Shown here in pieces: positions 34,752 to 34,974 of a stretch of 64,000 bases of DNA. Each line of letters starts with the position of its first letter. The stretch's first letter is position 1. A program made the translations under genes and the position numbers. The stretch is from an uncultured Bacilli bacterium (GTDB lineage: Bacteria > Bacillota_I > Bacilli_A > RF39 > UBA660): positions 1,254 to 65,253 of the forward strand of contig CANRPE010000002.1 of assembly GCA_947632405.1 (NCBI GenBank), read 5' to 3'. Below the pieces are notes generated by a model. That model saw only the letters and a program-made list of their open reading frames with translations, searched no databases and was not told where the DNA came from.

Positions 34752-34910
34752 TCACCCTTTGTCAACAGTTTCAGTCTGATTAATTTGATCCCATTGGTCA
34801 TTTATTCCTTTTTGAATATTAGGCCACATCCACCAAAAGAAACCTATTACTGCTGCAATAGCGATTAATGTAATAACTGTTAAGTTTAATTCTCCTGTTG
34901 CTGCTTTCAT
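34752..34910 (-). CDS. Candidate major pilin (52 aa, Flp-sized), absent from the ORF track
   Basis: Hand translation: MKAATGELNLTVITLIAIAAVIGFFWWMWPNIQKGINDQWDQINQTETVDKG, ending at TGA. It has its own strong promoter and the RBS AAAGGA, and sits between the TadC-like and pseudopilin genes. Confidence 0.55.
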   Translation of the reverse strand: MKAATGELNLTVITLIAIAAVIGFFWWMWPNIQKGINDQWDQINQTETVDKG

Positions 34911-34946
34911 ATACTATATACACATCCTTTCATATTATATATTTTT

Positions 34947-34974
34947 ATTATACCACTTTTTTTTAAAATAACAA
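34947..34974 (-). promoter_or_regulatory. Internal promoter in front of the small pilin gene
   Basis: The minus strand reads TTGTTA (34974-34969), a 16-nt spacer, then TGGTATAAT (extended -10; TATAAT at 34952-34947). Confidence 0.55.

Follow-up and report, generated by a model that had tools for sequence, protein, structure and literature searches.

A 64,000-nucleotide stretch of contig CANRPE010000002.1 from an uncultured Bacilli bacterium (assembly GCA_947632405.1), hereafter the window, contains a gene of 52 codons whose product is probably the major subunit of a new family of pilins, belonging to a module that would build a thin surface filament with a Tad-like motor and that is fused to a type IV secretion system (T4SS) of the monoderm type. 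The gene occupies positions 34752–34910 of the minus strand, on which all genes named below by window position are also located. The open reading frame (ORF) is shorter than the size cutoff of the ORF track, and an earlier note, made from the letters of this DNA alone, had proposed it as an unannotated pilin gene with its own promoter. We infer that the protein polymerizes, that the polytopic proteins encoded next to it serve in its assembly, and that the filament is linked to the function of the T4SS.

The ORF has 159 nucleotides including the stop codon, and its product, MKAATGELNLTVITLIAIAAVIGFFWWMWPNIQKGINDQWDQINQTETVDKG, is identical to the peptide quoted in the earlier note. Comparison with related sequences indicates that the ORF is a real gene under strong purifying selection. 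Relatives of the 52-residue protein form more than 1,094 clusters at 90% identity in a word-indexed search and 562 clusters at 50% identity in an exhaustive profile search of 1.84 billion representatives. The protein itself has no Pfam match at E up to 0.1, no Pfam domain is found on any of the more than 1,094 clusters, and the few named members are called "hypothetical protein". A scan of one genome per species gave 190 matches, all of them in uncultured gut "Bacilli", "Mollicutes/Tenericutes", "Mycoplasma sp. CAG:877", "Erysipelotrichaceae", or metagenome-assembled genomes of Candidatus Faecimonas, names that we equate for the most part with the GTDB order RF39. A single variant of the protein occurred on 354 contigs, and no match was obtained in collections of plasmids and phages, either by megablast of the locus or by tblastn of the small protein. 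The small gene is located between the genes of a 260-residue and a ~150-residue protein in all 87 related loci, and also in a more distant lineage. Residues A4, G6, T11, V12, T14, A17, I18, A20, F24, F25, and P30 are unchanged in 84 copies from these loci, and each is spelled with two to four synonymous codons, so that selection acts on the protein. The start codon is secure, since the longer and shorter forms in databases ("MYVLMK...", "MGELN...") are miscalled starts. One of them, P0197, had appeared to be an exception to the N-terminus MKxAxGE; its DNA reads ATG AAA GCA GCA ATG GGT GAG. Another deviating sequence, P0163 (locus L091), joins a classical Flp-type leader (...NNKGQTLVEYVLI..., KG/QTLVEY) to the helix and tail of the small-protein family. 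It is known from a single contig of 729 bp with a coverage of 0.59, and misassembly is the probable explanation; were the chimera genuine, it would represent a natural domain swap.

The small gene has its own promoter inside the operon. A -35 hexamer, TTGTTA (34969–34974, minus strand), is followed by an extended -10 element, TGGTATAAT (34947–34955, minus strand), which consists of the -10 box TATAAT (34952–34947) with TGG directly before it (34955–34953). The 16 nucleotides from TTGTTA to TATAAT already include the TGG, and the notation "TTGTTA-16-TGGTATAAT" of the earlier note was therefore slightly off. In this window taken alone, the promoter match is weak evidence. The window has a G+C content of approximately 25%, and the site of the small gene is the best of nine promoter-like sites in the region, as compared with 7.1 in the same stretch of shuffled sequences of 25% G+C. 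A single match means little in such A+T-rich DNA, and the test therefore had to rest on relatives. All 79 distinct upstream regions contain TTGnnn, a spacer, and TGnTAnnnT, with the end of the element 30–55 nucleotides 5' of the ATG. The spacer is 17 nucleotides long in 77 of these regions and 16 in two, the window being one of the two. The same pattern occurs in the loci as a whole at 0.034 per 140 nucleotides. The sequence between the promoter elements and the ribosome-binding site otherwise varies freely; the site itself, read from the sequence as GAAAGGATGTG (34921–34931, minus strand), is kept in all 79 regions as a GAAAGGA-type sequence, and GAAAGGA as such is seen in almost all of them. 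This conservation is the phylogenetic footprint that a genuine promoter with an extended -10 box leaves inside an operon; it confirms and strengthens the claim of a promoter made in the earlier note and fits a subunit that is needed in abundance. At 34226–34258, a terminator-like hairpin (13-bp stem with three G-C pairs) lies over the stop codon of the 161-residue protein encoded by the next gene, so the pilin promoter may drive a short two-gene transcript.

The small protein starts with MKAATGE, continues with a hydrophobic helix from L8 to W29 and Pro30, and ends in a polar, variable tail. Residues were counted in 124 representatives of the clusters of 50% identity. A4 and T11 are present in all 124, M1, K2, G6, and E7 in 123 each, T14 in 121, L8 in 120, and A17 in 116. 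N9 is found in 108 representatives (87%) and is replaced in 16, by Ser in 14, Gln in one, and Thr in one. The signature of the family is M-K-x-A-x-G-E-L-(N)-x-T, with E-L-N-[LM]-T-[VL] after Gly6; the hydrophobic run extends to approximately residue 29 and is followed mostly by Pro and then by an amphipathic I-x-x-x-I-x-x-x-W stretch. The N-terminal 30 residues are near-invariant, the tail is hypervariable, and the overall length ranges from 46 to 94 residues. Cysteines are absent from 80 representatives; one has a single cysteine, 24 have two, 15 have four, and four have six, which gives an even number in 43 of the 44 cysteine-bearing members. The cysteine-bearing tails are thus nearly always capable of forming disulfides, which places the variable tail outside the cytoplasm. 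Many close homologues (P0004–P0120) end in a hydrophobic, strand-like motif with a basic residue (...GYIIVDHNK, ...GMIVLERR, ...GYIVPEYFFEK, ...SYIILEDLYK); no such motif is present in the window's own copy, which ends with ...QTETVDKG.

The genes around the small gene have the same order in the 87 loci: Ig-like surface protein, sortase, a secreted protein of ~950 residues, DUF5411 protein, CpaB-like protein, ATPase, polytopic proteins of ~300 and ~260 residues, the small gene, one or two proteins of ~150 residues, a protein of ~330 residues, two VirB2-like "T4SS_pilin" proteins, VirB6/TrbL-like protein, a small protein, TraC-like protein, VirB4, and a cell-wall hydrolase. The layout recurs in the distant lineage, in which the pilin starts with MKEATGELNMTVV and its gene is present as two tandem copies. 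Judged by sequence profiles, the neighbors of the small gene are Tad-like only in part. Proteins of two annotated plasmid tad loci served as references, and profiles were compared by hhalign. The secretion ATPase of 424 residues (36689–37963; Pfam T2SSE, E 4e-27) belongs to the CpaF/TadA/VirB11 group and matched CpaF with 99.5% (E 4e-22). Its NCBIfam scores for VirB11 (2.5e-31) and for the TadA family (5.9e-31), both under the respective cut-offs, are equal, and the ATPase is therefore not placeable in either one. The 267-residue CpaB/RcpC-like protein (37997–38800; Pfam RcpC with 30.4 bits at a cut-off of 28.8, and SAF; TIGR03177, 1e-11) matched CpaB with 92.7% (E 4e-7). The conserved 328-residue protein (33211–34197), present in 85 of the 87 loci at the TadZ/CpaE position, has no Pfam or NCBIfam match and reached 1% (E 0.056) with a TadZ-like ATPase. 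The 260-residue polytopic protein (34999–35781), possibly a TadC-like platform, has no Pfam, NCBIfam, or PDB match, and the 297-residue polytopic protein (35781–36674), which has no family match and no PDB match, is a platform candidate by position only. The two were not detected as paralogues by hhalign.

The gene that follows the small gene encodes a 161-residue candidate minor pilin (34231–34716), which starts with MRDAIGGVVNITFIAVFMLVV and has the N-terminus M-[KR]-[DE]-A-x-G-G. In the sampled alignment of its ~150-residue family, M1, D3, G6, and G7 are present in every member, and R2 and N10 in at least 90%. The Thr of the triplet varies even among close relatives (NLA, NIA, NMV, NLS), and the Asn is lost in the distant lineage (MREAIGGTWLF...). 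Both genes of this window carry G-x(2,3)-N-[IL]-T-[VF]-I, as the earlier note had described, and the next-gene family does not conserve this motif elsewhere. The related proposal that the two genes have N-[IL]-T in place of the Flp/TadE motif finds no support, since the Thr of the next gene is not conserved, nor is its Asn outside this lineage. What the two families robustly share is the N-terminal M-[KR]-[acidic or Ala]-A-x-G and ~21 hydrophobic residues after it. Even numbers of cysteines, the trend of the small protein, are found in 77 of 84 members of the ~150-residue family. An AlphaFold2 model of the 161-residue protein, calculated from 84 sequences (pLDDT 82.8), has a helix spanning residues 3–47 and a small four-stranded head, which suggests the general lollipop shape of pilins. 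The protein has no Pfam or NCBIfam match, and an HMM search of its profile against PDB sequences gave chance membrane-helix matches only.

Several of these properties speak for a filament: the tandem pilin copies in the distant lineage, the near-invariant N-terminal part combined with the hypervariable tail, the even cysteine numbers, the N-terminus M-[KR]-x-A-x-G shared with the next-gene family, the matches of the ATPase to CpaF and of the neighboring protein to CpaB, and weak matches to the archaeal pilin domain PF07790. An assembly pathway consistent with them would start with transcription of the small gene at a high level from its own sigma-A-type promoter. The product would then enter the membrane in such a way that its variable polar tail faces outwards and the short N-terminus MKAATGE stays on the inner side. 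The CpaF/VirB11-like ATPase may extract the subunit from the membrane via the two polytopic proteins, and subunits would then stack by their conserved hydrophobic helices. The proteins of 140–190 residues with the N-terminus M-[KR]-[DE]-A-x-G-G could prime or cap the filament, and the CpaB-like and DUF5411 proteins would provide the envelope part. The genes of the module adjoin those of the monoderm T4SS, the sortase, and the large surface proteins without interruption and in the same orientation, and for this reason the most likely task of the filament is to make or stabilize cell-to-cell contact for the T4SS.

The proposed filament shares features with several described systems. The subunits of Tad/Flp (type IVc) pili, such as Caulobacter PilA (PDB 8u1k, 8u2b), are also formed essentially by one hydrophobic helix and a short tail, and mature PilA has 45 residues, as compared with 46 for the small protein if it is cut after Gly6. 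A CpaF-type ATPase and CpaB adjoin in both cases, and larger minor subunits are encoded after the pilin gene. In contrast to Tad/Flp pilins, the small-protein family lacks G/xxxxEY and has Thr at the equivalent of Glu5 and Glu at +1; it has no profile similarity to Flp/TadE, the locus yielded no TadV peptidase and no confirmed TadB/C or TadZ, and the host is a monoderm in which the module is joined to a T4SS. Archaeal type IV pilins (PF07790; Epd-type) likewise have no Glu5 requirement, and PF07790 (archaeal pilin N-terminal domain) is the only recurrent, albeit weak, family signal, matched by 23 of the 124 representatives at E up to 10 (best E 0.0038). Unlike archaeal pilins, the small-protein family has no Lys/Arg at -2, its hosts are bacterial, and its matches are under the cut-off.

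Another counterpart is the conjugation operon of pLS20-family Bacillus plasmids, genes 36–41 (Val-Calvo et al. 2021, PMC8557374). It encodes, in the same order as here, a small protein with an N-terminal helix, an ATPase that is ~34% identical, and two polytopic proteins, followed by a ~120-residue protein with an N-terminal helix, a ~47-residue one-helix protein in tandem copies, and then a VirB2-like protein and the T4SS. The 245-residue polytopic protein of pLS20 (gene 39 family) is homologous to the 260-residue protein in the window (hhalign 91.7%). The 47-residue protein has no detectable similarity to the small-protein family, and its gene is positioned after the ~120-residue gene, whereas the small gene precedes the ~150-residue gene. 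Gene 37 was described as a putative VirB11, the other genes of 36–41 as "unknown", and the operon as containing no pilus homologues (PMC8557374). The pLS20-family plasmid pNARUSE (locus L094, 9915–10447) carries three tandem copies of the 47-residue one-helix gene (MLDQNADRMYWVIGAV...), one of which is unannotated in the "intergenic" stretch 9915–10133. The preceding 120-residue protein starts with MLDGAVMAIGKMYMAIF, so an N-terminal pattern is common to a small and a larger protein there too.

A number of results weigh against the major-subunit interpretation. No filament of this system has been seen, and no pilus is known for pLS20 plasmids (PMC8557374, PMC11730352). The comparison of the small-protein family with five Flp sequences by hhalign gave 0.4% (E 0.15), none of the 124 representatives matches Flp_Fap (PF04964) at E up to 10, Pfam N_methyl and NCBIfam gave no match, and an HMM search of the small-protein profile against PDB sequences produced nothing beyond chance membrane-helix matches. 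The PF07790 matches remain far under the gathering score of 25.2 bits, and three examined singly had 9.9–14.2 bits and lay on the membrane helix. The N-termini of the small-protein and ~150-residue families align in the same register, with an hhalign probability of 0.6%, which is without significance. A Foldseek search of PDB with the model of the 161-residue protein found nothing significant (best E 0.14, a phage coat protein). The match of the 260-residue protein to TadB/C reached 28% (E 6e-4, 99 columns over the T2SSF region), and that of the 297-residue protein 0.4% (E 0.13). AlphaFold2 modelled the 260-residue protein poorly (pLDDT 59.5), since the homologues available for it share 72% identity or more, and a fold search with this model was meaningless. 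No A24 prepilin peptidase was found in the locus DNA, to which the searches were confined: the window and 91 related loci (1.6 Mb) contained no polytopic ORF with GxGDxK, a genuine prepilin peptidase used as tblastn query had no match at E up to 10 in the window or in 94 loci, and Pfam gave no match among the scanned window ORFs of 100 residues or more.

The lack of a pilin family match and of a nearby peptidase would be explained if the product were a small, non-polymerizing single-pass membrane subunit of the ATPase, platform, or T4SS complex, such as an assembly factor or a channel component. Monoderm T4SS loci do contain small membrane proteins without an assigned role, and gene 41 of the pLS20 family (47 residues, one membrane helix) is a positional analogue in an operon without a reported pilus. 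This is the main rival of the filament subunit, and we consider it distinctly less probable. A dedicated, conserved, near-consensus promoter in the operon suggests that the product is needed in large excess over its neighbors; the tail is hypervariable, extracytoplasmic, and often cysteine-rich; tandem copies exist; and the N-terminus is shared with larger, lollipop-shaped proteins. These are traits of a filament subunit and argue against a stoichiometric channel part. It is quite unlikely that the small protein is a divergent true Flp/TadE prepilin, cut by a TadV/CpaA-type peptidase and carrying N-[IL]-T in place of E-[YF]. The protein has the size and shape of a Tad pilin, as pointed out in the earlier note, a CpaF-like ATPase and a CpaB-like protein adjoin, and after a cut behind the invariant Gly6, Thr11 would take the place of Glu5. 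Membership of the Flp/TadE families is nevertheless contradicted by the profiles. To the Flp and Flp_Fap results given above is added the value of 0.1% (E 0.47) for the ~150-residue family and three TadE sequences, whereas TadE and Flp, compared with each other as a control, gave 87% (E 4e-6). The control detects the canonical N-terminal motif of Flp/TadE, which makes the negatives for both subunit families informative. The Flp motif G-xxxx-E-[YF] itself is absent, because position +5 from Gly6 is the invariant Thr and +6 is not aromatic; in addition, neither the window nor the related loci yielded an A24 peptidase, and N-[IL]-T is not a feature of the next-gene family outside this lineage. 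The VirB2/TrbC pilins of T4SSs (PF04956, PF18895) have two membrane helices behind a Sec-type signal peptide; the small protein has one helix and does not match their profiles. It stands outside the Flp/TadE families and represents an undescribed one.

Small size, a hydrophobic helix, and an own promoter would also suit a secreted or membrane-active peptide (bacteriocin, pheromone, or toxin) that is merely located in the operon. This is very improbable, since the protein has neither a double-glycine nor a Sec-type leader, in every locus its gene keeps the same place amid the genes of the machine, neighboring genes for immunity or export are lacking, and the membrane helix is the most conserved part and the tail the variable one, which is the reverse of a receptor-binding peptide. 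The N-x-T triplet is a formal sequon in both genes of this window, where a 500-residue polytopic protein and a flavin oxidoreductase are encoded by genes inserted nearby, and it is scarcely credible as an N-glycosylation site. Thr11 is invariant and Asn9, as counted above, is not, so the sequon is not the conserved feature; the membrane helix has the triplet at its inner, cytoplasmic end; and the inserted genes, found in no more than ~5 of the 87 loci, do not track the sequon in the next gene. The doubt that the earlier note had expressed about glycosylation was therefore justified.

If the protein is a filament subunit, its N-terminus can be read in two ways, and the evidence bearing on the choice is weak. 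Pilins of the type IV filament superfamily have class III signal peptides, in which a short and usually basic leader with Gly/Ala at its end precedes about 20 hydrophobic residues and the motif is common to major and minor subunits. The segment M-K-x-A-x-G precedes 22 hydrophobic residues but has no overall basic character, and for a leader it is unusual that K2 and A4 hardly vary. The reading to which we give slightly less than an even chance is that MK(A/E)A(T/S)G is a six-residue type IVa-like leader, which is cut after Gly6 by a peptidase encoded elsewhere. Tad peptidases of Gram-positive bacteria can be encoded away from the locus. The cut would give a subunit of 46 residues starting with Glu and with Thr at +5. 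Archaeal Epd pilins start with Gln, which was reported to become pyroglutamate; by analogy, the N-terminal Glu could form pyroglutamate, removing a buried charge. Use of the small protein without any cut is somewhat less likely than the cleavage after Gly6, and the remaining share falls to neither of the two. The uncut form is consistent with the register of the PF07790 matches, in which residue i of the small-protein family corresponds to profile position i+2. The Arg of an archaeal-type consensus, ERGVSPVIG..., maps to profile position 1, and we assume that archaeal cleavage occurs after this Arg-Gly; Met1 would then stand opposite the first mature residue and Gly6 opposite the Gly at +6, as if the small protein had no leader. 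A leaderless type IV-like pilin that does not need a prepilin peptidase, in which Lys2 and Glu7 replace the charge pairing of the N-terminal amine with Glu5, and which forms the mating or contact appendage of a monoderm T4SS, appears unlikely.

Should the leaderless pilin be real, the filament would supply the appendage for mating or contact that has been said to be missing from monoderm T4SSs. In the reduced-genome RF39-type gut bacteria it would be a fixed chromosomal contact organ, not a function of a mobile element, with distant analogues in pLS20-type plasmids. The carriers are very common uncultured gut bacteria, the locus is among their largest conserved gene blocks for a surface machine, and its probable main subunit has no family, name, or predicted function in any library searched. 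If true, a pilin that has an invariant Thr where Glu5 is expected, Glu at +1, and no peptidase linked to it would widen the accepted recognition rules for type IV pilins; the small-protein family is missed by motif-based pilin finders. The conserved filament module in T4SS loci is a concrete candidate, and its positional analogue is found in the genetically tractable pLS20.

No paper describing the small protein was found in the literature; related gene clusters have been reported. A predicted secretion-related operon of Roseburia, Ruminococcus, and Eubacterium contains CpaF, PilC/GspF, and DUF5411 (Miller et al. 2022, PMC9523054). It resembles the module described here in these components and in its occurrence in gut Firmicutes, and neither a ~50-residue subunit nor a link to a T4SS was described for it. 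The uncultured clade TANB77 has a Tad-like cluster in which pilin-like genes have their own promoters (PMC11680825); unlike here, the pilin-like proteins have 143–237 residues, and no ~50-residue subunit or T4SS link was described. Type IV filaments and T4SSs act jointly in cell contact in the R64 thin pilus, PAPI-1, and Saccharibacteria (review PMC12857230), the last of which have reduced genomes and no relaxase near the T4SS (PMC12102498). In contrast to the small protein, the pilins of these three are classical type IVa/IVb prepilins with a known peptidase, and the two machines in the window form one operon-like block in a monoderm. Recent reviews describe Gram-positive T4SSs as having no VirB11 and no pili. 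For Patescibacteria, the epibiotic lifestyle has been tied to monoderm-type T4SSs that have VirB2 arrays and no relaxase, and to type IV pili that are separate from them.

The small gene is part of a co-oriented block at 17960–51489 that comprises the Tad-like module, the monoderm-type T4SS, the sortase, and several large surface proteins; more than 80 species-level genomes keep its gene order. Housekeeping genes (AspRS, GatA/B, TrpRS, RmuC, SpoU methylase) flank the block, and neither a relaxase nor an integrase was found among the scanned window ORFs of 100 residues or more. It looks like a fixed chromosomal locus and not obviously like a mobile element. The adjoining T4SS genes (19285–29384), which have the same order and orientation in related loci, encode two VirB2-like T4SS_pilin proteins (28505–28954 and 29046–29384), a 652-residue VirB6/TrbL-like protein, a VirB4-like ATPase, a cell-wall hydrolase, and a VirD4 coupling protein (19285–21405). 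On the other side of the module, the 148-residue DUF5411 protein (38822–39268; PF17424, 1.7e-45) has an N-terminal membrane helix, and hhalign did not link it to the next-gene family. Miller et al. 2022 connected DUF5411 with CpaF and PilC/GspF operons of gut Clostridia. The 990-residue secreted protein and the sortase (39285–43029) are conserved upstream members of the operon. No obvious LPxTG substrate of the sortase was found among the neighboring large proteins.

Between the genes of the 328-residue and VirB2-like proteins, three genes are inserted at 29472–33120, which encode a 180-residue protein, a 521-residue flavin amine-oxidase-like protein, and a 500-residue polytopic membrane protein without a family match. 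The two larger ones are found in ~5 of the 87 loci (e.g. L014, L024, L034, L035), and the 180-residue gene in none. The secreted proteins of 990 (39285–42257) and 1,051 residues (44986–48141) are paralogous, have no family match, and share the C-terminal end ...YYY[KQ]SN...NTR[IL]G[FY]NNN. Otherwise unrelated-looking proteins of the locus, encoded at 43042–44841, 48159–49916, and 17960–19264 in the window and at 13833–14951 in L089, have a common C-terminal motif G-x-G-[ST]-x-x-[NS]-P-Y-x-I-x-[KR]; they end with ...GEGSETNPYTITK, ...GDGTSLNPYEIAK, ...GNGSKKNPYVIR, and ...GNGTKKSPYQIR, and no LPxTG for the adjacent sortase was seen in them. The edge of the block carries a PedC-like/DUF6568 thioredoxin-type gene (52073–52600 in the window, 1224–1682 in L088–L090 of the distant lineage), which could serve the disulfides of cysteine-rich pilin tails. 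In the distant lineage, it adjoins the gene of an Rce1-like membrane protease, a candidate for processing. Farther away in the window, at 4406–5502, are the spore-coat genes of CotJB and a manganese catalase (CotJC-like); relatives of the host are publicly labelled Mollicutes, Tenericutes, or Mycoplasma.

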